Virus record (IMG/VR): IMGVR_UViG_3300009314_000709
Coordinates: 8,433-72,432 of that record
Length of the DNA: 64,000 nt
Direction: 5' to 3' (one strand)
Origin: a virus
Part shown: positions 11,896-46,414 of the stretch, piece by piece
How the letters are laid out: each line of letters opens with the position of its first letter
How positions within the stretch are numbered: position 1 is the first letter of the stretch
Translations under genes and position numbers: made by a program
Notes under the pieces: model-generated
What the model saw: the letters and a program-made list of their open reading frames with translations, nothing else
The model's database searches: none
Told to the model about the DNA's origin: nothing

Positions 11896-14229
11896 TTAAA
11901 AAGTATCAGCGTTTTCGCTGAACGAACCAGTGCGGTGAATCGAGAAGTCGATAAAGATGAATTCGACTGCTCGGGTTGGTTGAACACCAATTCTCGCCCG
12001 CAACTCGTTCCTATCGATTACATCGGGCGGATTCAACTCTTCATCACATTGGACTCGATAATCCGTGAGTCCTCTCTTGCCCTTGACTTCTTCCAAAACC
12101 AGTTCAGCCATGTCGACGAACTGTTGTCGCAAGATATCATCGTGGGGCTCGAAGAGGAGCAAACGACTTCGGCGAGCGATCTGTTTCTCAATGTAGATCA
12201 TCATACGACGCACATTGACACGATCCAAAGCGGTCGGTCGTCGTTGTAGCGTCTTCTGGCCGAAGACCACGAAATCCTGAATGTCACTGAATTGCACAAT
12301 TGGGTTAACAGCGTTCCTGTTTCCATACATCTGGTCTCGTTCTTCGAGGCTAGGTCGTGAAAACACATCTGAGATGTTAGGAACGATACCACGGGTTAAA
12401 CCAGCGGGAGCAAACCACGGGGCTGATAGGTCATCAGATCGTGCATAGACAGCTAGAACCGAACCAGACGGTGGAACCCACACATCAATTCGGTTGGTTG
12501 TGTCACGGTATCTCAACCACGGCCAATACATCGCACCAAAGTCATTATCGAATCGGGTCAGGTTGAGTGGGTGCACACCGTTCTGCCAGTCCACAATCTC
12601 ATTGACCGTGAGCCCAAACGGTGGGTCGACGATAGTGAAGCAATCCATTCGCACGTCCCGGCACATTCGCAACTGTTCTACAATGACATCAGTTGACGCA
12701 TGGCCTGGGCAGCAGAGAATATCAATATCGACTTGCTCTGGGTCGGACAAAGACCACATACCAGTCATACCCAGTTCGTTTCCGATAATTAGCGCATCCT
12801 GTTCTTCGGGATCAGAAGGGATGCCGTCGCTGCCACCAGAAAGATCATAGGTGCCAGCTACCGGGCTTGCTGGGTTAGCTGTGTTGTCCGTTACACGAAT
12901 GAAGTCACTCACGAGTGACATGTACGATTCAACATAGAATCGGCTTGTATCATCCTTAGTCAGGCCACCCCATGCTTCAACTTCAGCACCATTGCTAAAG
13001 ATATTGAATTGGAATGTGCCATCTAGCGAGTTGTTTTCAATAACAACTTGCGTTTCATTGCCTTCAATGCCAGGCGAGTCAGCGTCGAGGGTGAAGCTAA
13101 TACCACCCGAACCTTCGGCCAAACCATTAGCTCGACCGACAGTATGAATGTCAGCATCACCAGTGGCTCCGATTGGGCTAACGCCTTCGGCGGTAATGTT
13201 AGCCAAACCAAAAATGGTATCGGCTGTGCTGGCTACCTTGACAAGCAGCTTAGAATCACGTCCAAAAGTGTCTGTCGTCAAAACCAAGTTCCCAGCACCT
13301 GTTGCCGAGGCAGTAAAGCCTTGGGCCTGGGAGTTGATTTCAAGTACGATGTCGGCAATAGCGGCATCCGTGTCTTCCAAGTCAGCGAGGTCGATGACTT
13401 GAACAATATCGTCAATCAATACGTTGTCCGTACCTTCCATGACGACTTGCAAGTTCAAATCAGCCAAGCCAGTGAAGTCATACTGCCCATCCGTCTGATA
13501 TGCAGTATTTGGATATTTGGTCGCCGTTCCGGTGACTGACGCCTGCTCCATTCCTGTACCAAGGCCGCTCACATTGCCACCGGCAACGGAGTCACCGTAC
13601 ATAGAACCAGAGACAGAAACCATTTCGAGTTCGGCGTCTGGACCATAAGCCCATGTTGTCCGCACGGCGATCTTGTCCCCGGTAGAGTTGTAGAACTCAA
13701 TTCCGTCAATGTCGGAGTCAAGCTGGTCATTCAACTCTGTTACGAGTTCGTCAGTTGTGTAAGTATCCGCCAGGACAACCAAGGTCTTGCTCGAAAGCCT
13801 TGTGTTAAGTCTCCATCGGAAGAATGCACTATCGGAAAACGTATAGGGTCCAGCCGTATCCGACTCGATCTGTACAGTCGAGCCAGACGCAGAAACGTCC
13901 ACACTCGCCGTTTGTGCTTGCTCGTCACTTACCGGGCTTTCGTCAGCTACACGCACAACGTACAGTTCGTTTGCCACAAGCAGATACTGCTCGCAAGCAT
14001 AGATGAGGTACGGGTCGCTCTCATCAGGATGAGGATACCCAAACGTGCGGTGTAGTTCTCGTCTTGTTTGAATTAGCGTTGGTAAATTGATCGGGCCTTT
14101 ACTGGCGAAGCCAACAAGTCCTGCCCGGTGTGGACTTGGGTTCGGCAGAATCAGACTCAAATCAGTTTCCTTGATCCGAACACTAGGGCTAATTGTATTG
14201 CTCGGTGGAAATCCCCTTAGAAGCGGCAT
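11896..14229 (-). CDS. tail sheath protein (T4 gp18-like)
   Basis: SPSVRIKETD, GFASKGP, PWFAPAGLTRG, VFGQKTLQ, ALDRVNVRR, FEPHD, QPTRAVEFI. Confidence 0.97.
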   Translation of the reverse strand: MPLLRGFPPSNTISPSVRIKETDLSLILPNPSPHRAGLVGFASKGPINLPTLIQTRRELHRTFGYPHPDESDPYLIYACEQYLLVANELYVVRVADESPVSDEQAQTASVDVSASGSTVQIESDTAGPYTFSDSAFFRWRLNTRLSSKTLVVLADTYTTDELVTELNDQLDSDIDGIEFYNSTGDKIAVRTTWAYGPDAELEMVSVSGSMYGDSVAGGNVSGLGTGMEQASVTGTATKYPNTAYQTDGQYDFTGLADLNLQVVMEGTDNVLIDDIVQVIDLADLEDTDAAIADIVLEINSQAQGFTASATGAGNLVLTTDTFGRDSKLLVKVASTADTIFGLANITAEGVSPIGATGDADIHTVGRANGLAEGSGGISFTLDADSPGIEGNETQVVIENNSLDGTFQFNIFSNGAEVEAWGGLTKDDTSRFYVESYMSLVSDFIRVTDNTANPASPVAGTYDLSGGSDGIPSDPEEQDALIIGNELGMTGMWSLSDPEQVDIDILCCPGHASTDVIVEQLRMCRDVRMDCFTIVDPPFGLTVNEIVDWQNGVHPLNLTRFDNDFGAMYWPWLRYRDTTNRIDVWVPPSGSVLAVYARSDDLSAPWFAPAGLTRGIVPNISDVFSRPSLEERDQMYGNRNAVNPIVQFSDIQDFVVFGQKTLQRRPTALDRVNVRRMMIYIEKQIARRSRLLLFEPHDDILRQQFVDMAELVLEEVKGKRGLTDYRVQCDEELNPPDVIDRNELRARIGVQPTRAVEFIFIDFSIHRTGSFSENADTF

Positions 14230-14230
14230 G

Positions 14231-14464
14231 TTATCTCTCCTTCTTGTGGGCTTCTTCGTTACTCTGTATTTGTCTGGTCGTTAATAGTCCCCATTTGACA
14301 TTTCGGTCTAAATACTCACTCACTACTCGCTCGTCTTCGAGTAGAACCGTCTTACGTCCTGGGATATTAAGAACTGTCATGGCCTTAGCGTGTTCTCGCC
14401 TGTCGGAAAACGACCTAACTACCAATTGCACTGGGCCAGGCGTTTTGTTTCGGACTTCAATCAT
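14231..14464 (-). CDS. small tail-associated hypothetical protein
   Basis: Between the gp15-like gene and the sheath. Confidence 0.6.
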   Translation of the reverse strand: MIEVRNKTPGPVQLVVRSFSDRREHAKAMTVLNIPGRKTVLLEDERVVSEYLDRNVKWGLLTTRQIQSNEEAHKKER

Positions 14465-15504
14465 ATATCCTCTCCTACAGCTTCTTCTATTCTTGCTATA
14501 ACGTTTGCCACGTCTTGGTCAGTAATACTGTCCAAAATCTCAGTTCTTGTCTTTAGTACGGCCTTTCGCCTCACTATTGGCTGAGGTATATATGACTCAG
14601 CCGTTAAGTTAATTTGGAACTTAAACACACGTTTGTTCGTGTCCCCAGGTTCTGTATCTACGTTATTACTAACCGAGTCGATCCTAACCGTACTTTCCCA
14701 GTTGGTAACACCATGTATCCTTATATACGCAAGTGGACTAAATTTCGTAGCGATCTGTTCTAGTATTTGATTCATATCTTCCCAGAACATTGTCCAGATA
14801 GTTAACGTATATCCTAGATCAACAGGAATCCCTCGTGTCATACCAAGCACTGTGTCGTGCTCGTGTTTCCATTCCCTGTGTGTCCAACTAGGCGACCCGC
14901 CAATCATGCCAACAGGATGACCTTGATCGTTGTATCGTTGAACGCCACGTTTGTAATCAACTGCCTTGTGATAGATGTATCGCTCACGAGGAAAACTGTA
15001 ATCAGAAGTGTAGATGGACATCATCGGTAGGATGATGCGATCTGCTACCCCGGTGTTATCCTTTCGCACATTGGTTTGAAGAATGACTGCAACGGCCCGC
15101 TCTTGAGAACCCCACACAATTGGGACACGGAACACCTTGCCTCGCTCGTCTGCTACATTGACGTTTTGGAAGAGCTTCCAAACCGATTCATCAATAGCAC
15201 GATATCCCTTCGAGTATCTGTAGATCACAGATCGATCTGGTGGCAACTTCGGAGCATCTACCTCCTCGAATATTGTGCCTCTTAACATCGGATCACAATA
15301 ATTCGGTTCGCCTAATCCTTCCTGGAGAGCCATCAAATCAGCATCAAGACCTTCAAATGAAGCGTTCGGAGCATGATGAAGATTCTCAAGTCCTTCACAC
15401 GACCTAAACTGCGCAACATCTTCACAGTTCTGTGCATGTGGCTCTTTCACATTTCGATCTGACTGACGAGGTTCAGCACATTCGTTCAGTGATTTCTCAG
15501 GCAT
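14461..15504 (-). CDS. tail sheath stabilizer/completion protein (T4 gp15-like)
   Basis: VPIVWGSQER, ILPMMSI, PVDLGYTLTIWT...DMNQILEQI..KFSP. Confidence 0.85.
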   Translation of the reverse strand: MPEKSLNECAEPRQSDRNVKEPHAQNCEDVAQFRSCEGLENLHHAPNASFEGLDADLMALQEGLGEPNYCDPMLRGTIFEEVDAPKLPPDRSVIYRYSKGYRAIDESVWKLFQNVNVADERGKVFRVPIVWGSQERAVAVILQTNVRKDNTGVADRIILPMMSIYTSDYSFPRERYIYHKAVDYKRGVQRYNDQGHPVGMIGGSPSWTHREWKHEHDTVLGMTRGIPVDLGYTLTIWTMFWEDMNQILEQIATKFSPLAYIRIHGVTNWESTVRIDSVSNNVDTEPGDTNKRVFKFQINLTAESYIPQPIVRRKAVLKTRTEILDSITDQDVANVIARIEEAVGEDI

Positions 15505-18439: not shown

Positions 18440-19342
18440 ATGACTACTTCATGCCCACAACAAATGCGATTAAGCATCACAGCTACTACGAAAAATACCG
18501 AGCCATGTGGCTCTGGGAACATAAACTGCACTGATTTGAATCCCGTAGGATGTCAGTGCAATGAATCGATTATTGGCCCTCGCAACAATCGTGAGAACGT
18601 GCGAGGGCAACTTCACGATTATATCTTGGCAAAGCTAGGTGCACCTGCGATAGAACTCGAACTGGATGAACAGCAACTCGATATTTCCATTGATGAAGCA
18701 CTAGATGTCTGGGAAGACTACGCCCCAAGGGACTTCTACCAATATTACACATTCACAACTATCCCTGGTACAAGCGTTTATCAAATGCCACCCGAAATAG
18801 GACATATCAGACAAGTGTACTATAAGGAAATGGCACAGTTCGCTTTCCAATCAACAGACCTAGACGGGGCAATTCCAGTTGAGTACTTCTACCCAGGTGG
18901 TGCGTACACAAGTATCCAAGGCGGCCTCATAGACCCCATTCAACCTATCTGGGGACGCATGGGAGAATGGGCGTTATACAAGCAGTACGAACAAATGTAC
19001 TCAAAATTGTCTTCTAACCTTGGCGGTTGGGAGTGGGTTGGCGGCCGGAACACAATTAAACTCTACCCAATACCATGTAAACCACAAACAGTCATTGTCC
19101 ACTACCTACAGAAGTGTAAAGACTGGGAGTGTAACTACCAGTCTATTCGTGAAGGTGCTTTGGCTTCGGCTATGATGATGGTGGGTGAGATTCGCAGCAA
19201 GTTCCAAACAATCCCTGGGCCTATGGGTGGCACGGTATTAAATGGCCAAGATATCTTGCAGCGAGGGAAAGAGATGTGGGACAGATGGGAAGAGCGGCTA
19301 ATAGATAGGTACGGCGATATCTTAATGATCCTTGTAGGTTAG
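18440..19342 (+). CDS. neck protein (T4 gp13-like head-tail adaptor)
   Basis: DYILAKLGAPAIELELDEQQL...IDEAL, GEIRSKF..IPGP.G...LNG; CTATATA at 18425-18431. Confidence 0.88.
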   Translation: MTTSCPQQMRLSITATTKNTEPCGSGNINCTDLNPVGCQCNESIIGPRNNRENVRGQLHDYILAKLGAPAIELELDEQQLDISIDEALDVWEDYAPRDFYQYYTFTTIPGTSVYQMPPEIGHIRQVYYKEMAQFAFQSTDLDGAIPVEYFYPGGAYTSIQGGLIDPIQPIWGRMGEWALYKQYEQMYSKLSSNLGGWEWVGGRNTIKLYPIPCKPQTVIVHYLQKCKDWECNYQSIREGALASAMMMVGEIRSKFQTIPGPMGGTVLNGQDILQRGKEMWDRWEERLIDRYGDILMILVG

Positions 19343-36494: not shown

Positions 36495-37328
36495 CTAAAC
36501 CTGATTGTCCAAGAAGTCATTGGACACCCGAATACGTTTCAAGGATGTGAAAAACTGAGACACAACGTAACTTCGATGCAAGCCCTTCCAGACATAGATA
36601 AGGGCAGCCAAAATACCGCCTGTGGTAGTGCCCTGTTGCACGAGAATGTACACGATGCAAATCTCAGCAATGATGATGCAAATGTGTGTTATCGCCCACG
36701 TCAGCGCATCATAATCTGACTGCCGTATCAGTCTTCTTTTGATGAGCGAATAGCCTTCCTCCACTGTTTCCAGATCGTGCAGCGCAATAGCCGAACTCAC
36801 GTCTTCCCGGTGCACTTGCTCTTGATGCTGTTGAGTCATTGCCCAACATGCTATCACGTACCCCGTGAAGCAACAGAAAGCAATCAGCGAGGCAAAAACA
36901 ATCGTAACATCCCCGACGATAAACCAAAGGAAGCCAATGCTCACAAAGATGTCAATAATGGCGCACGCCGCCGATGGTAAGACGAATTCATAGAAATCAG
37001 CATACCTTCGTACCAATTCTTGACGACTAATGATTTTCGGAACGGCAACACGAAGTGCGACTAGTTTTCGAGCCGTCTCACCGGCCACCCTCGCCCAGAC
37101 ATCACCAAAAGCTCTGGTGTCGAATAACCTTCTCCCAGTCCCGATCAGCAAACCAACGATACAGATGCCAATATATCCCGCAAAGGCATACCACGACCCA
37201 TCTAATGCCATATCGAGCGCCTTGCCCAGCAAGTAGGGAAGGCAAGCGAACATGACGAATTCCACCAACAGCGTCGTGTACGTCGCTATGATGCGGAACT
37301 TATTGTCGAGAAACATTCGCCACAACAT
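36495..37328 (-). CDS. ABC transporter six-transmembrane-domain protein (no ATPase domain)
   Basis: TLLVE...PYLLGKALD, GTGRRLFDTRAF motif of the ABC_membrane_3-type family. Confidence 0.7.
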   Translation of the reverse strand: MLWRMFLDNKFRIIATYTTLLVEFVMFACLPYLLGKALDMALDGSWYAFAGYIGICIVGLLIGTGRRLFDTRAFGDVWARVAGETARKLVALRVAVPKIISRQELVRRYADFYEFVLPSAACAIIDIFVSIGFLWFIVGDVTIVFASLIAFCCFTGYVIACWAMTQQHQEQVHREDVSSAIALHDLETVEEGYSLIKRRLIRQSDYDALTWAITHICIIIAEICIVYILVQQGTTTGGILAALIYVWKGLHRSYVVSQFFTSLKRIRVSNDFLDNQV

Positions 37329-37352
37329 ACAACCCTCTCACACACAAAAAAC

Positions 37353-37645
37353 ACGTCAGTCTCGTACCCAGGATTCTGTTTAATGCGGCCATTTATCTGG
37401 TGGCCTCGACCCGGCTATCATAGCCCTGTTCACCGGCTAAGCCTGTTTGAGTTGCACCCTCTGGGGTCCAAGCGGATGTATGCCAGGCACATTTACCTTG
37501 GCGTGATGTCAAGCGTTTCGCTGTTTGCACTCACGCAAGCCGTGAATGGCCGATCATACACCCTCCCCCATTAGAACAGCGGTGTCCTGAAGTTCCTCAC
37601 ATCCTTACTGGTAGGTAAGGGTAGTGCGACCGCTCGGACTGACGT
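37353..37645 (-). ncRNA. rnpB: RNase P RNA (compact bacterial-type)
   Basis: P1 (ACGUCAGUC/GACUGACGU); CR-I GAGGAACUUCAGGAC pairing with CR-V AACAGAAUCCUGGGUAC (P4); CR-IV AGAUAAAUGGCCGC pairing with GCGGUCG (P2); CR-II/III GAGUGCAAACAG..GAAACG. Confidence 0.88.
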
Positions 37646-37659
37646 ATCTGGTTTACAAT

Positions 37660-37875
37660 TCACCCTACGTGTGAAAGGTGTGTGATGGTGCCATCTTCGA
37701 CGACGACATTGAGCCTATTCGTACAGTAGTCGGCGGTTCCAACGTAGCATTTGCCGTCTTCTTGTAAGATGCGTAGAGTGAAGCCCTTTGATTCTACCAG
37801 ATGTTTAGCTTGATCGATTTCTAATCCGATAATGCTCTTACTGAGATATCGCTTTGCGTTCAACCGAACCCCCAA
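37660..37875 (-). CDS. peptidase inhibitor I78-like protein
   Basis: IIGL...LRI...TADYCTNRLNVVVEDGTI...VG. Confidence 0.7.
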   Translation of the reverse strand: MGVRLNAKRYLSKSIIGLEIDQAKHLVESKGFTLRILQEDGKCYVGTADYCTNRLNVVVEDGTITHLSHVG

Positions 37876-38786
37876 CGTTTTCTGTTCTCTCGTATGCCTG
37901 CCTCAATATCGTATTTAGGCACGAACCCGAGATGCTTCTTCGCCAAAGCCATATCACATTCAGTGTGATCTTGGTATTTCTCAGGTTCTGGATTAGGTAT
38001 ATAGCATGGACCGCCCCAACTCCATTTGCTATACAAGTCAGCCAGAATATCATGGATTCGATTGAATGTTGTCGCTACCCCCGATCCGCAATTCACAACG
38101 CATGATCGATCAGCTTCCATCGCCATCAAATTCGCTCGTACCACATCATCTACGAAAATCCAGTCTCGCTTCTGTTCTCCATGCTCAAATAGTTTGACCG
38201 GCCGCCAGACGATCCTCTTGCCCACCTGATGAATCATACTGGCTCGTTTGCCTTTATGATGCTCGCCTGGGCCATAAACGTTGCAATAGCGAAGTCCTAT
38301 GAAAGTGACGTGTGGATACCTGACAGATAAGTGACGAGTGACTTTTTCCAGTTCGAGCTTTGATCGAGCATAGGCATTTAGCGGATCAACCGGCCCGTCC
38401 TCTCGCTGCGGCGCTGGTGTTTTGCCATATACGGCCGTCGAAGAAGCATAGACGATCTTTTGACAACCATTTGCTATCGCCCACTCAAAGACGTTAATAG
38501 AACTATGCACGTTCTGCCACAACATTTCCCTCTCGTCTTTGCAGGTGGTATCGTTATTCGCCGCCTGGTGGAAGAGCACATCGAGAGATTGGTGTTCATC
38601 TCGGAGAAGAGACGACATGCGGTGAAAATGCACGCCGCCGACGCCATGAAAGAACAACGCACATTCTGGAGGTAATTTGTTTTCGCAAGGGGAACCGGTA
38701 GCCAACACGAAATAACCCAGTTCGAGTAATCTCTTAACTAGGTTCGAGCCAACGAATCCCGTTCCACCTGTCACCAGCATAGCCAT
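37860..38786 (-). CDS. rfaD: ADP-L-glycero-D-manno-heptose 6-epimerase-like NAD-dependent epimerase
   Basis: VTGGTGFVGSN, FHQAA..DTT, YASSTAVYG, PLNAYARSK, LRYCNVYGPGEHHKGKRASM, YQDHTECD. Confidence 0.85.
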   Translation of the reverse strand: MAMLVTGGTGFVGSNLVKRLLELGYFVLATGSPCENKLPPECALFFHGVGGVHFHRMSSLLRDEHQSLDVLFHQAANNDTTCKDEREMLWQNVHSSINVFEWAIANGCQKIVYASSTAVYGKTPAPQREDGPVDPLNAYARSKLELEKVTRHLSVRYPHVTFIGLRYCNVYGPGEHHKGKRASMIHQVGKRIVWRPVKLFEHGEQKRDWIFVDDVVRANLMAMEADRSCVVNCGSGVATTFNRIHDILADLYSKWSWGGPCYIPNPEPEKYQDHTECDMALAKKHLGFVPKYDIEAGIRENRKRWGFG

Positions 38787-39642: not shown

Positions 39643-40088
39643 ATAAGGTCTTAGGGCCGCCACCTGGCTCATCACCTGGTGACTTGTAGTTTTTATGATC
39701 GCCCTTTGGCTAGCCATGTCGTTTTACCAGAACGACACCGGGTTGTGTCATATGCTCCACTTGGCCTAGCCGTAATGCCTCAGCATGGGCGTAGGCGACC
39801 TTTCAACTTCACATCGACTGAAACTTCCCTTTGATTGTTTACACCGCTCTGGGAGCGAACGTGTCTTTGGCCCGGAGGCCACACTAATGCAAACGTACAA
39901 AAGTTCCATTTCACCGACGCTACGTGATAAGGCAAGTGATGCAACACAACAAAAAGACGACCAGGACTACCAAACCCAGACAGTTGCTTTTCACCGCACA
40001 GTGCTTATTCGCTTCGGGGCTGTCCTCCCCTACCATGCGGCTTCCGGCGCATCAGGCCGCAGCCTGACAGAAACACCCAAGACCTTAT
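39643..40088 (-). ncRNA. large structured ncRNA, OLE RNA-like
   Basis: 13-bp end-to-end stem (AUAAGGUCUUGGG/CCUAAGACCUUAU), many internal hairpins, own terminator. Segments UAAGCACUGUGCGG..AGCAACU, GAAAUGGAACUUUUGUA..CAUUAG..GGCC..GGCCAAAG and GGUAAAAC resemble OLE conserved blocks as recalled. Confidence 0.65.
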
Positions 40089-41020
40089 TTCCATTGATCC
40101 AGGTTGGGGGCGTAATCCTTGGATGCTTCGTGTCCAATCCTCCAAATCACATTTTGCTCTACGTAGCGGCCAATCACGTCCATGAACTTGTCCGTCTCCC
40201 CCACGGCGGCATCGTCAATCGTGCGCCGTAATTCGTCGGGATCGATGTCTTCTTCCCAAATCTTTTCGTGAACCCGATCTTCCATCACCACCTTCGTGGC
40301 CACTGTTGCGAGATCGTACATCAGTTCGACCAATGAAGGTCGAGCTAACCAGAAGTTGCCCAAGGAGCGATATTCAACACCATACTTCTCGCACGCCCGG
40401 TGCGTCCCTGCTTTCCCATACAACCTACGTCGATCTTTCGATGTCGGGTCTTTGTCGAGCAGCAATGACGGGATACCCAGGAAGAGATCACACATTCGGA
40501 CAACCCAAACACGATCCCAGCAAATCTGGAAGATCAATTCTTCGTACTCCTCCTCGCCCATCGCCTGTGGTTTCTCAAAATCCACACCGCCGTCGTAGCC
40601 GATGTGAATGTGCCCGCCACCCGACCGAAATGTGTTGCGGCAGTCCGGTGGAACCACCACCATCATTTCATAGGCACAAAACTCTGGATCGCAACCGAAC
40701 AAACGAGCATCTCTGTGCTCGCACTCTCCGTCAGGGTAATAGGCCGACGCTTGGGGTACTAACCGGAGCGGCCGGACCAGTTGAGCGTATCGTTCAATGC
40801 ACTCTCGGAAGCTACCAACGACAGCTTCTCTACTGGCTTCCGGGCGAATGTTGCACTCGGCTAGCACGTTGTCGTAAAACGCCAAATGATCGTCTCCCAT
40901 GTCGTAACGGTCATCTTTTGTGCCGAAAACGACGCCAATGGCGCTTTTCAAACGACCTTGTTCATCCTGCAACATGAACTCCGGGTCGGAGCCGAATGTA
41001 ATTGGCATGACGAGTCTCAC
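40085..41020 (-). CDS. phiEco32-like COOH-NH2 ligase type 2
   Basis: TFGSDPEF, DNVLAECNI.P, FGCDPEF.AY, RSGGGHIHIG, RRRLYGKAG, YGVEYRSL.NFW. Confidence 0.9.
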   Translation of the reverse strand: MRLVMPITFGSDPEFMLQDEQGRLKSAIGVVFGTKDDRYDMGDDHLAFYDNVLAECNIRPEASREAVVGSFRECIERYAQLVRPLRLVPQASAYYPDGECEHRDARLFGCDPEFCAYEMMVVVPPDCRNTFRSGGGHIHIGYDGGVDFEKPQAMGEEEYEELIFQICWDRVWVVRMCDLFLGIPSLLLDKDPTSKDRRRLYGKAGTHRACEKYGVEYRSLGNFWLARPSLVELMYDLATVATKVVMEDRVHEKIWEEDIDPDELRRTIDDAAVGETDKFMDVIGRYVEQNVIWRIGHEASKDYAPNLDQWK

Positions 41021-44955: not shown

Positions 44956-45399
44956 ATGCATTGTCCGTTAACCGGCAAACCATGTCTGATGCCAAAAGAA
45001 GTGTTTATCACAGAAGTGAAAGATAATGATGTGCGACACTTATTCATGTGTCGACAATGTGGCGACAAGTATATCGAAGACCTAAACGATGCCGATGTTG
45101 TAACGAAGTCTTTAGAGGTCGTTTCGTCGGACGGCGACATTTCACATAACGAACATGTTCTCGACGATGAACATATTGGCGACTTGCCAGAGAACCTACA
45201 GGAACTCCCGACACCTCAACCAATCACCGCCCCTGTCTCAACGCTTCAACAAATCAAAGCTGTTGAAGCTAAAATGCAAGCCGCTATCGACAAAGAAGAT
45301 TATGAATCAGCCGCTGCCCTACGTGATATCCTTATTGAACTTCGACAACGAGATAATCCGCTAAACCTAGAGGACAACGAAGATCAAGAAGAAATCTGA
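44956..45399 (+). CDS. McsA-like Zn-binding/UVR-domain protein
   Basis: MHC..C...FITEV.....HLFMCRQC N-terminus; C-terminal UVR motif MQAAIDKEDYESAAALRDIL. Confidence 0.75.
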   Translation: MHCPLTGKPCLMPKEVFITEVKDNDVRHLFMCRQCGDKYIEDLNDADVVTKSLEVVSSDGDISHNEHVLDDEHIGDLPENLQELPTPQPITAPVSTLQQIKAVEAKMQAAIDKEDYESAAALRDILIELRQRDNPLNLEDNEDQEEI

Positions 45400-46343
45400 C
45401 GTGAGGGTAAGCCTTTGAGTAGTTTGTTCAAAGTGATAATGCCAAATCCCTGGTAGAATGGATCACCAGCATATTCCTCACCTACAACGTTTATCGTGTG
45501 CTCTCGGAAAAACTGACGATAGGAGTCGGCATTGTTGATTTGTATGTCCAGGCCAACGTTCCGTTTGTAAGAGAGTAGCAAAGCGGCAAGCCCACACACG
45601 AACGGCTGAGCCATTGAAGAGCCCGACAAGATAGCCCACCAATTGTCGGGAACTGTACTCAAGATATCAACACCAGGGGCCATGAAATCCAAGTTCTTTC
45701 CTGTGTTGGTGAAGTCCGCTCGTCGCAAGTTCTTATCAATCGCCCCAATAGCAATTGTCTCTGGGTAGTTTGCCGGATAAAGCAAGTGCTCTGACTTGCC
45801 TATGTTCCCGGCTGCTACAAATACAGGGATGTTGGCTTTGTCCGCAGCCTTTAATGCCCACCTCAATGATCGCATAGGCTTGAGAGTCCCCAGCGACATT
45901 GAGATGAAATCGACTTTCTGCTTAATAGCCCACCGAATAGCCTTTACAACATCTTCGATTTCTCCGTCTCCATAACCATCAAGCACTTTCACTGGACGTA
46001 CTTTTGCTTTGGGTGCTACCCCAACCGTCCCTATGTCATTTTGCTGTGCGCAAAGAATGCCCGTTACATGAGTACCATGTTCTCCGTCATCATCTGGTAG
46101 TACGCCTGGCCTGACAAAGTTATATCCGTCCAATAGATTGTCTTGCAAATCAGGATGGTCAAGGTCACAGCCGGTGTCCAGTACGGCGATGGTGATACCC
46201 TCTCCCTGAGTAACGGCCCATGCTTCGGGTATGTTAAAAGTACTGACTCCCCAATCCGTCCTTTCTCTCAGTTGTTGCATGGAGATAATGTCTCGGCGCT
46301 TGTAGGGCAGTAAACTACAATGTTGTTGTGTTTCAATTGGCAT
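45384..46343 (-). CDS. subtilisin-like S8 serine protease
   Basis: VLDTG, HGTHVTG, AAGN, SGSSMAQP; CTACATA at 46357-46363. Start moved to MPIETQ. Confidence 0.92.
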   Translation of the reverse strand: MPIETQQHCSLLPYKRRDIISMQQLRERTDWGVSTFNIPEAWAVTQGEGITIAVLDTGCDLDHPDLQDNLLDGYNFVRPGVLPDDDGEHGTHVTGILCAQQNDIGTVGVAPKAKVRPVKVLDGYGDGEIEDVVKAIRWAIKQKVDFISMSLGTLKPMRSLRWALKAADKANIPVFVAAGNIGKSEHLLYPANYPETIAIGAIDKNLRRADFTNTGKNLDFMAPGVDILSTVPDNWWAILSGSSMAQPFVCGLAALLLSYKRNVGLDIQINNADSYRQFFREHTINVVGEEYAGDPFYQGFGIITLNKLLKGLPSRQISS

Positions 46344-46377
46344 CGTGCCTCCATAGTATGTAGCCACTCTGCCAACC

Positions 46378-46414
46378 AAAAACCCGCCCTTCCGAAATTC
46401 GGAAGGGCGGGTTT
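46378..46414. terminator. intrinsic terminator
   Basis: AAAAACCCGCCCTTCCGA-AAT-TCGGAAGGGCGGGTTT. Confidence 0.8.

Follow-up and report, generated by a model that had tools for sequence, protein, structure and literature searches.

Ribonuclease P (RNase P) RNA counts as a hallmark of cellular life. In print, we found a single viral case, the RNase P-like RNA of camelpox virus, which is described as having some structural similarity only and no activity in cleavage of precursor tRNA (pre-tRNA) in vitro, and as a possible decoy (PMC3001073). A search of the open full-text literature, which did not cover subscription journals and supplements, found no RNase P RNA encoded by a phage. The main text of the huge-phage paper makes no mention of RNase P or rnpA, although its supplementary tables may list RnpA genes (PMC7162821), and a term look-up in two papers on RNase P gene finders returned no phage-encoded RNase P RNA. 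Here, we describe an RNase P RNA-like gene of 293 nucleotides (nt) in a 64,000-nt stretch of viral DNA (the window), which comprises bases 8433 to 72432 of the 72,432-nt IMG/VR virus record IMGVR_UViG_3300009314_000709, and the family of phage RNAs to which it belongs.

Several described RNAs can be set beside these phage RNAs. Archaeal type T RNAs (Thermoproteaceae, Pyrobaculum), as presented in PMC3579882 and PMC7191817, are likewise natural RNAs that keep the catalytic domain and have lost most of the specificity domain, and they too are missed by standard Rfam models. Their definition rests on a P2 helix of 3 base pairs (bp), a P15 shorter by one pair, a P5/P15 linker of 2 nt, and a core of the archaeal type (PMC3579882), and they are said to be confined to Thermoproteaceae (PMC7191817). 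The phage RNAs do not fit this definition, with a P2 of 6 bp in the window and of 5 to 7 bp in 59 of 60 relatives and a linker of 3 nt; this looks like independent shrinkage rather than membership. The E. coli catalytic domain (C-domain) alone (Eco CP RPR) is reported to cleave substrates with reduced efficiency (PMC5839562). Such C-domain-only RNAs are laboratory constructs, whereas the phage RNAs are natural and conserved, with a covarying stub and conserved loop strands. The RNase P RNAs of candidate phyla radiation (CPR) bacteria were likewise found only below Rfam thresholds, and some are described as lacking P12, P13, P14, and P18, but they are cellular, single-copy essential genes in which the specificity domain is still present (PMC8172020). 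The theta ribozymes, which are hepatitis delta virus-like, are likewise phage-encoded, lie beside phage tRNA genes, and are proposed to mature tRNAs (PMC10879173). They differ in being small and self-cleaving and in acting in cis on 3' trailers, whereas an RNase P homolog would act in trans on 5' leaders. The camelpox RNA, for its part, differs from the phage RNAs in belonging to a eukaryotic virus and in having no tRNA context (PMC3001073).

With bacterial type A RNA (Rfam model RF00010; gene rnpB), the phage RNAs share the order and pairing of P1 to P6 and P15 to P17, the GAGGAA, GCAA, AGAU.AAUG, and ACAGAA blocks, the GGU in the P15/P16 loop, a P2 of 6 to 7 bp, and a 3-nt P5/P15 linker. They differ from it in lacking P18 and the P7-P14 specificity domain, which holds conserved regions (CR) II and III, and in being shorter (179 to 317 nt, compared with 335 and 383 nt in two bacterial controls). 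RF00010 gives them 30 to 61 bits, as against more than 200 bits for true members, and they are phage-encoded, often inside tRNA arrays.

Locus and Covariance-Model Match

The gene lies at positions 37353 to 37645 of the window, on the minus strand like all of its parts given below, and runs from P1 end to P1 end. The complementary P1 strands (37637 to 37645 and 37353 to 37361, the latter followed by a U-run) sit exactly at the ends of the element, so that the boundaries proposed in an initial annotation of the window are exact. P1 can be extended to 13 bp (37349 to 37649) with G-U pairs.

RF00010, the model for bacterial class A RNase P RNA, matched 37349 to 37645 on the minus strand over its full length (model positions 1 to 367) with a score of 46.8 bits and an E value of 3.8e-13 in a 1-kilobase (kb) search, or 6.5e-15 in a search of the whole 72,432-nt record. 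This match was taken with E-value reporting; the gathering score of the model is 100 bits, and a default Rfam scan of the whole window at gathering scores returned no match. The alignment shows P1, P2, P3, the GAGGAA block, P5, the GCAA linker, P15 with its CCGGGU segment, and the AGAUAAAUG and AACAGAA blocks, while the P7-P14 region and P18 appear as unaligned inserts or deletions. The element is a real RNase P RNA homolog, with an end-to-end match far beyond chance, but it is no standard bacterial RNase P RNA. The proposal in the initial annotation that this is a compact RNase P RNA thus holds against the covariance model, albeit below the gathering score.

A Family of Phage RNAs

When GenBank phages were searched by blastn with the window element, the one hit was partial and lay in LR756502.1, an uncultured huge phage of 642 kb. 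The element there is 205 nt long and is matched end to end by the archaeal RNase P model at 32.4 bits; an RF00010 search of LR756502.1 gave no match at an E value of ≤0.001, though the RNA is present there. The two RNAs have in common the P3 sequence (85.7% identity over 35 nt) and the 3' half. A pattern of blocks common to both retrieved 42 IMG/VR loci, 20 of which have GAGGAA 57 to 64 or 119 to 130 nt upstream together with a complementary P4. In an alignment of eleven small members (A1), the consensus fold given by RNAalifold contains P4, P5, a short hairpin, P15, P16, and P17, and 20 of its 27 pairs show compensatory changes. The covariance model built from A1 (R1), whose seed does not contain the window, gave 22 hits at 115 to 187 bits over 446,533 nt, the next best being 13.6 bits. 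The window element itself scores 121.5 bits with an E value of 1.3e-29.

A stricter pattern run on metagenome contigs yielded 73 loci, 72 of which match R1, and a pattern for the 5' half yielded 29 further IMG/VR loci, 27 of them matching at 51 to 158 bits. The family stands at 64 distinct aligned sequences and 30 further matching loci; these counts are lower bounds, as the searches were seeded with patterns and biased toward members keeping the seed motifs. Its members come from phage and metagenome contigs only, which supports the proposal in the initial annotation that the RNA is phage-encoded. The largest host contig is 499 kb long, several of the records, 149 to 498 kb in length, carry a rating of complete, and the huge-phage genomes carrying the RNA are of 634, 642, and 735 kb. 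GenBank members include LR745206.1 (634,780 nt; 99.4 bits) and LR756501.1/LR756503.1 (735,411 nt; 104.5 bits), as well as the cultured Stenotrophomonas phage vB_SmaS-DLP_6 (DLP6), in which the RNA (KU682439.2:105772-106019; 60.7 bits, E value of 2.6e-15) fills an unannotated gap and ends 6 nt before tRNA-Arg(CCG). In blastn searches of GenBank phages, the DLP6 element found only itself, and the element of another member, L100, had no match.

When nine phage members were searched with Rfam, five gave subthreshold matches (32 to 61 bits) and four gave none at an E value of ≤0.001. These scores fit with the report that a full Rfam scan of megaphage genomes yielded only tRNAs and a transfer-messenger RNA (tmRNA) (PMC8172020). 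For comparison with cellular RNAs, we used as a sample the 80 cellular loci among the pattern matches listed. R1 scores them at 52.1 bits or less, and none of these 80 is of the phage type. The two best are ordinary type A RNAs of WOR-3 bacteria, 335 and 383 nt long, which score 242.9 and 204.8 bits with RF00010.

A DNA pattern drawn from the P5/P15 linker region (J5/15) common to the window and LR756502.1 was rejected: it hit 77 IMG/VR loci, none with flanking RNase P blocks, and one of these, checked by eye, was coding. The small stable RNAs rnaC and rnaD, at the end of the T4 tRNA cluster, were also considered as relatives and discarded, with no R1 match above ~1 bit with filters off; the best R1 match in 8 kb of T4 (12.4 bits) lies inside a coding gene.

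Some members show peculiarities of their own. The copy in LR745206.1 (502059 to 502279; L320, 1501 to 1721), a 634-kb phage with its own RnpA, reads GAGAAA for GAGGAA and GCAAAA for ACAGAA. The copy in the 735-kb phage LR756501.1 (L323, 1970 to 2199), whose record is without RnpA, reads ACAGGA for ACAGAA and carries a 29-nt insert with two small hairpins exactly at the P18 position. Second, partial or weaker model matches, which may be duplications, lie beside or ~0.5 kb from the main copy in L340 (3205 to 3405 and 3409 to 3509) and in L346, L351, and L352 (second hits of 28.6 bits).

Conserved Structure of the Catalytic Domain

The 64-sequence alignment was made after removal of identical copies, low-scoring metagenome hits (L244, L266, and L288), and hits cut by contig ends (L299, L300, L303, and L305), and it was aligned to R1 and is therefore model-fitted. 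Standard pairs make up 97.2% of its 1713 cells, compared with 28 to 40% when partners are slid by 1 to 3 columns. Changes on both sides were seen in 21 of 27 pairs (395 cells), and none of 500 shuffles reached any of these measures. P4 has 8 pairs, 6 of them with changes on both sides, and 98.0% of its cells are paired; in P15 to P17, all 10 pairs have such changes, with 96 to 99% of cells paired.

Because the alignment was fitted to R1, we examined as a separate test the P6 pseudoknot, a feature that is absent from the model. As in type A RNAs, the linker that follows P5 has its complement in the loop of P17. The pairing is CUGCU/AGCAG in most members, CUUCU/AGAAG in LR756502.1, and CUGUU/AACAG in the window (37575 to 37579 with 37426 to 37430), where a compensated U-A stands in place of the C-G of most members. 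Across the alignment, 96.4% of 306 P6 cells are paired, all five pairs have changes on both sides, and none of 500 shuffles was as good.

Helices P1 to P3 are not alignable by sequence and were counted with a custom script anchored on the conserved blocks. This was done for 60 sequences, with L290, L301, L307, and L308, which have no exact GAGGA[AG], left out of these counts and of the tRNA-context counts below. A P2 of 5 to 7 bp followed by GC/AC is present in 59 of the 60, with 31 different P2 sequences, and a P1 of at least 6 bp in 58, with 50 different P1 sequences; total length in this set is 179 to 317 nt.

In the window, the 5' strand of P2 (37628 to 37633) pairs over 6 bp with 37385 to 37390, and the P3 hairpin, with an internal loop, spans 37598 to 37626 in the RF00010 alignment. 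CR-I and the 5' strand of P4 with its bulged U follow at 37585 to 37598, of which 37593 to 37598 are the GAGGAA block (>90% conserved in the family); the 3' strand of P4 (37366 to 37373) and the AACAGAA block of CR-V (37374 to 37380) make up 37366 to 37380, and the P4 pairing is CUUCAGGA/UCCUGGG. The 5' strand of P5 (37581 to 37584) pairs with 37455 to 37458. Positions 37405 to 37451 hold P15 (37449 to 37451 with 37405 to 37407), P16 (37440 to 37443 with 37413 to 37416), the P17 hairpin (37423 to 37437), and the GGGU of the P15/P16 loop (37409 to 37412), whose GGU is >90% conserved in the family. The AGAUAAAUG block (CR-IV) occupies 37390 to 37398; because no more than 6 nt (up to 37404) separate it from P15, P18 is absent. 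The features of the universal core are present, namely, a bulged-U P4 flanked by CR-I and CR-V and a P1-P2-P3 arrangement that closes the molecule, with P2 crossing P4, as are the type A features of the P6 pseudoknot, P15-P16-P17, and the GGU in the P15/P16 internal loop. The complete type A catalytic domain is thus kept, with P1 to P6, P15 to P17, the single-stranded blocks around P4, and the GGU loop.

The initial annotation had listed most of these hallmark regions, and P1, P2, P3, CR-I, the GCAA of J5/15, the AGAUAAAUG and AACAGAA blocks, and P4 all stand, leaving only its CR-II and CR-III to be withdrawn (see below). It had also described CR-I as variant. The C after GAGGAA is indeed there, but it is one side of a P4 pair that reads GC in 31, AU in 17, and CG in 15 of 64 relatives; because this pair covaries, the C is compensated and is not a defect.

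All 47 columns that are at least 95% conserved in the 64 relatives are kept in the window, including GAGGAA, GCAA, GGU, AGAUAAAUG, and AACAGAA. This bears on whether the window copy could be a decaying relic, derived from an array-embedded ancestor, moved and no longer used, as its atypical location and unshared insert (both described below) might suggest. With every helix intact and compensated changes in P4 and P6 in addition to the conserved columns, we regard such decay as improbable.

Reduction of the Specificity Domain

In the small members, the ~47 to 54 nt between the P5 strands consist of the P6 strand and a 5-bp stem that encloses, in order, a GGAG-type strand, a tiny hairpin, a CG.U...AC-type strand, and a GAGG-type return. 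This stub stem covaries in four of its five pairs. The length inside it is continuous across the family, from 2 to 106 nt, and the window, with 99 nt, is the 7th longest of 64. The window's specificity-domain remnant (37462 to 37570) has the 5-bp stub stem (37566 to 37570 with 37462 to 37466) and the conserved internal-loop strands of the GGAG and CG.U...AC types, and its insert folds into one long irregular hairpin (37474 to 37563) of -43.2 kcal/mol, a z score of -2.43, and 4 of 200 shuffles as good. The hairpin is lineage specific: no other family member shares it in blastn, where similarity stops at the catalytic domain (70 to 81% identity).

Positions 37514 to 37531 are the ones at which the initial annotation had placed an adjacent CR-II and CR-III. 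They form part of the tip of the long hairpin, where they are base-paired, and are no conserved region; the hairpin occurs in no relative, and Rfam leaves the positions unaligned. The deduction of a P12 loss from this adjacency is incorrect in its details: the whole P7-P14 domain is replaced by the stub, with the tip hairpin enlarged in the window lineage. The window RNA therefore reads as a stub-type member with an expanded tip and not as a type A RNA without P12 alone. The two conserved strands of the stub may be descendants of CR-II and CR-III that still touch the tRNA elbow.

A different, conserved insert of ~105 nt, with no sequence relation to that of the window, is common to six members (L287, L248, L274, L254, L283, and L306), which may mean that the specificity stub was elaborated a second time, independently. 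The idea that it is a true specificity domain was rejected, as Rfam does not align it.

tRNA Context and Protein Partner

ARAGORN was run on the 60 family loci. At least one tRNA was found in 40 of them, within 1 kb of the RNA in 33, within 100 nt in 23, and within 100 nt on both sides in 5. All 408 tRNAs lie on the strand of the element, and the gap to the next tRNA can be as small as 0 to 10 nt. In arrays of 25 to 38 tRNAs, the RNA takes the place of one unit; in L100, for example, it begins 2 nt after tRNA-Thr and ends 5 nt before tRNA-Gly. Spacers of 100 nt or less between tRNAs have a median of 8 nt. Given such tight spacing, cuts that free the neighboring tRNAs would also free the RNase P RNA. 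The location of relatives in tRNA arrays strongly suggests that the RNA processes phage tRNAs, as had been proposed initially.

The window copy, for which tRNA processing is predicted from these relatives, is itself one of the 20 loci with no tRNA and has by far the longest tRNA-free flanks. The tRNA search found none in the 64-kb window, as noted initially, and none in the record's other 8.4 kb. Several of its nearer blastn relatives (L277, L245/L284, L247, and LR756502.1) are also without tRNA in their loci, and two others, L316 and L279, lie among 15 and 16 tRNAs, respectively. It could be that the stand-alone copy is an active ribozyme with other substrates, its long hairpin redirecting cleavage to phage mRNAs or tRNA-like structures. 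The tRNA-free 72 kb and a hairpin unique to the window would accord with this, as would the position of the gene between protein genes of the same strand, where a possible outer helix overlaps the ribosome-binding site of the next gene. However, only ~14% of the genome is known and tRNAs may lie elsewhere, other members with no tRNA at their loci come from huge phages, which as a group are reported to encode tRNAs (PMC7162821), and no candidate substrate was found. We consider such retargeting unlikely, if a little less so than decay into a relic.

Among 52 RNA-carrying records, a search for RnpA (PF00825) found the domain in two, LR756502.1 (52 bits) and LR745206.1 (49 bits). The LR756502.1 protein has ~100 residues and a basic RNR-type motif, and the LR745206.1 protein is 51% identical to it. 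By tblastn, these two are the only phages in a GenBank collection of 50,697 records that carry RnpA, and both have the RNA. The other 50 records, among them the complete genome of DLP6, the 735-kb genome, and eight IMG/VR records with a completeness rating of ≥90%, had no RnpA in the PF00825 search, so that most such phages would depend on the host protein, on none, or on an unrecognized one. The 72,432-nt record has no PF00825 domain either, which extends the initial observation that the window lacks rnpA. The use of host RnpA by the window RNA, as first suggested, is plausible in light of the 50 records, with only ~14% of the genome known; the LR756502.1 copy, which is among its nearer relatives, lies in a phage with its own RnpA.

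The main rival to a catalytic role also concerns RnpA. The RNA could be a decoy or hijacker that binds host RnpA or pre-tRNAs without cutting and thereby diverts the RNase P protein to phage transcripts or stops host tRNA maturation. The camelpox RNA, which is inactive, has been discussed as a possible decoy (PMC3001073), and 50 of 52 records are without an RnpA of their own. Moreover, the retained catalytic domain is the protein-binding part of RNase P RNA. On the other hand, the active-site blocks are near-invariant, and the bulged-U P4, the P6 pseudoknot, and the GGU loop are conserved or covarying, all of which would be needless for a decoy; the two phages that also encode RnpA are hard to reconcile with a sponge. 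We disfavor the decoy, although among the rivals considered here it is the least unlikely.

Two side observations concern other RNAs at family loci. In two phage contigs, L098 (3246 to 3318) and L101 (1869 to 1941), ARAGORN predicted tRNAs with a CUA anticodon (labeled tRNA-Pyl) at a distance of a few kb from the RNase P RNA; these are candidate amber suppressors, as in UAG-recoding phages. In L082, a 416-kb IMG/VR contig, a tmRNA (80 bits) beside or interrupted by a group I intron (91 bits) lies at 426 to 1037, 5 kb from the RNase P RNA.

Host Record and Neighboring Genes

The record is rated 14% complete by CheckV, from which a genome of roughly half a megabase would follow by simple division. 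Phage structural genes in the window encode a T4-type baseplate protein (201 to 1466), a tail sheath (11896 to 14229), a T4 gp15-like sheath stabilizer (14461 to 15504), and a head-tail adaptor (18440 to 19342); the sheath has at most ~27 to 38% identity to that of any GenBank phage. Upstream of the RNA in its own sense, at 40 to 46 kb, lie phage-family genes (phrog_3815 and phrog_3677), with a phiEco32-type COOH-NH2 ligase at 40085 to 41020 and the phrog_3677 protease at 45384 to 46379. The window RNA is carried by a large T4-like phage.

The RNA's immediate neighbors, on the same strand, encode an ABC_membrane_3 protein (36495 to 37328) and an NAD epimerase (37860 to 38786), and the surrounding genes, also on this strand, are of sugar-metabolism and transporter-like types. 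None of the flanking genes is shared with the 90-odd family loci. Scans of 37200 to 37950 for sigma-70 promoters and intrinsic terminators found none. A possible outer helix of 16 bp (37663 to 37678 with 37334 to 37349), of uncertain membership in the element and with G-U in 6 of its 16 pairs, could surround the entire RNA. On its 3' side, the helix overlaps a purine-rich stretch that is the likely ribosome-binding site of the downstream membrane-protein gene (start at 37328), and LR756502.1 has an 11-bp A/U-rich outer helix at the corresponding place. It may serve in processing or in translational coupling, or it may be due to chance.

A long run of glycan-related genes (30900 to 63600) lies inside this phage contig and includes genes for a TPR/GT9 protein, an NAD epimerase, a 941-amino-acid GT2 glycosyltransferase, a class III aminotransferase, a phosphoheptose-isomerase-like protein, and an ABC transporter membrane domain. 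The wealth of sugar-metabolism and glycosyltransferase genes at 30 to 64 kb could be taken to mean that the contig is bacterial, misassembled or misclassified, and the RNA a cellular RNase P RNA. Against this stand the phage structural genes at 0.2 to 19 kb, the phage-family genes at 40 and 45 kb, and the even base composition. The RNA also scores as the phage type (121.5 bits with R1), whereas bacterial RNAs score 52 bits or less with R1 and more than 200 with RF00010, and members occur in complete phage genomes, including that of a cultured phage. A cellular origin is thus close to refuted, and by far the least probable of the explanations considered.

Proposed Function and Significance

Our preferred reading is that the RNA is the catalytic subunit of RNase P, with an RnpA-type protein as its partner and the 5' leaders of pre-tRNAs as its substrate, and we put its probability at roughly 0.7. 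It is favored by the intact and covarying active-site architecture, the array context of relatives, the co-occurrence with phage rnpA, and the precedents for activity in RNAs without a specificity domain. In the proposed scheme, the RNA would be made during infection and would bind an RnpA-type protein, the host's in most phages and a phage-encoded one in a few. Together, RNA and protein would cut the 5' leaders off precursor tRNAs, and the phage would in this way itself provide the catalytic subunit that acts on its tRNAs. For the window copy, expression, catalysis, protein partner, and substrates are all predicted. Two pieces of the stretch were found at ≥99% in a marine metagenome DNA run, no RNA run was among those listed as containing it, and two metatranscriptome runs of the same study gave no match, which speaks neither for nor against expression.

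Several findings weigh against this reading. The RF00010 score of 46.8 bits is below the Rfam gathering threshold of 100. P18 and the specificity domain, which in bacteria contribute to folding and tRNA recognition, are missing. The GGU of the P15/P16 loop pairs with the tRNA 3'-CCA in bacteria, and 63% of 391 tRNAs in family loci have no encoded CCA, which weakens the argument from this loop. The copy in LR745206.1 departs from the GAGGAA and ACAGAA blocks, so that not every member need be catalytic. Finally, with no tRNA near the window copy or anywhere in its 72,432-nt record and no flanking genes in common with the family, the argument for function from array context comes from relatives and not from this copy.

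Taken together, we think it probable, if somewhat less so than the catalytic role itself, that large phages carry an undescribed and widespread class of virus-encoded RNase P ribozymes, with a type A catalytic domain and a specificity domain collapsed to a stub. These would usually be transcribed as part of the phage's tRNA array and set free by the same cleavages as the tRNAs, and in the largest known phages they would come with a phage RnpA and so make up a whole RNase P; the window would hold a stand-alone, enlarged member.

Default Rfam thresholds hide this family from standard annotation. Because the cultured phage DLP6 carries a member, the question is directly testable. If the proposed function is correct, the members of ~180 to 200 nt would provide a compact natural scaffold for studying the role of the specificity domain, unannotated gaps in phage tRNA arrays would be explained, the archaeal type T minimal enzyme would have a natural bacterial-type counterpart, and tRNA 5' maturation would join the translation-related functions that big phages bring with them.

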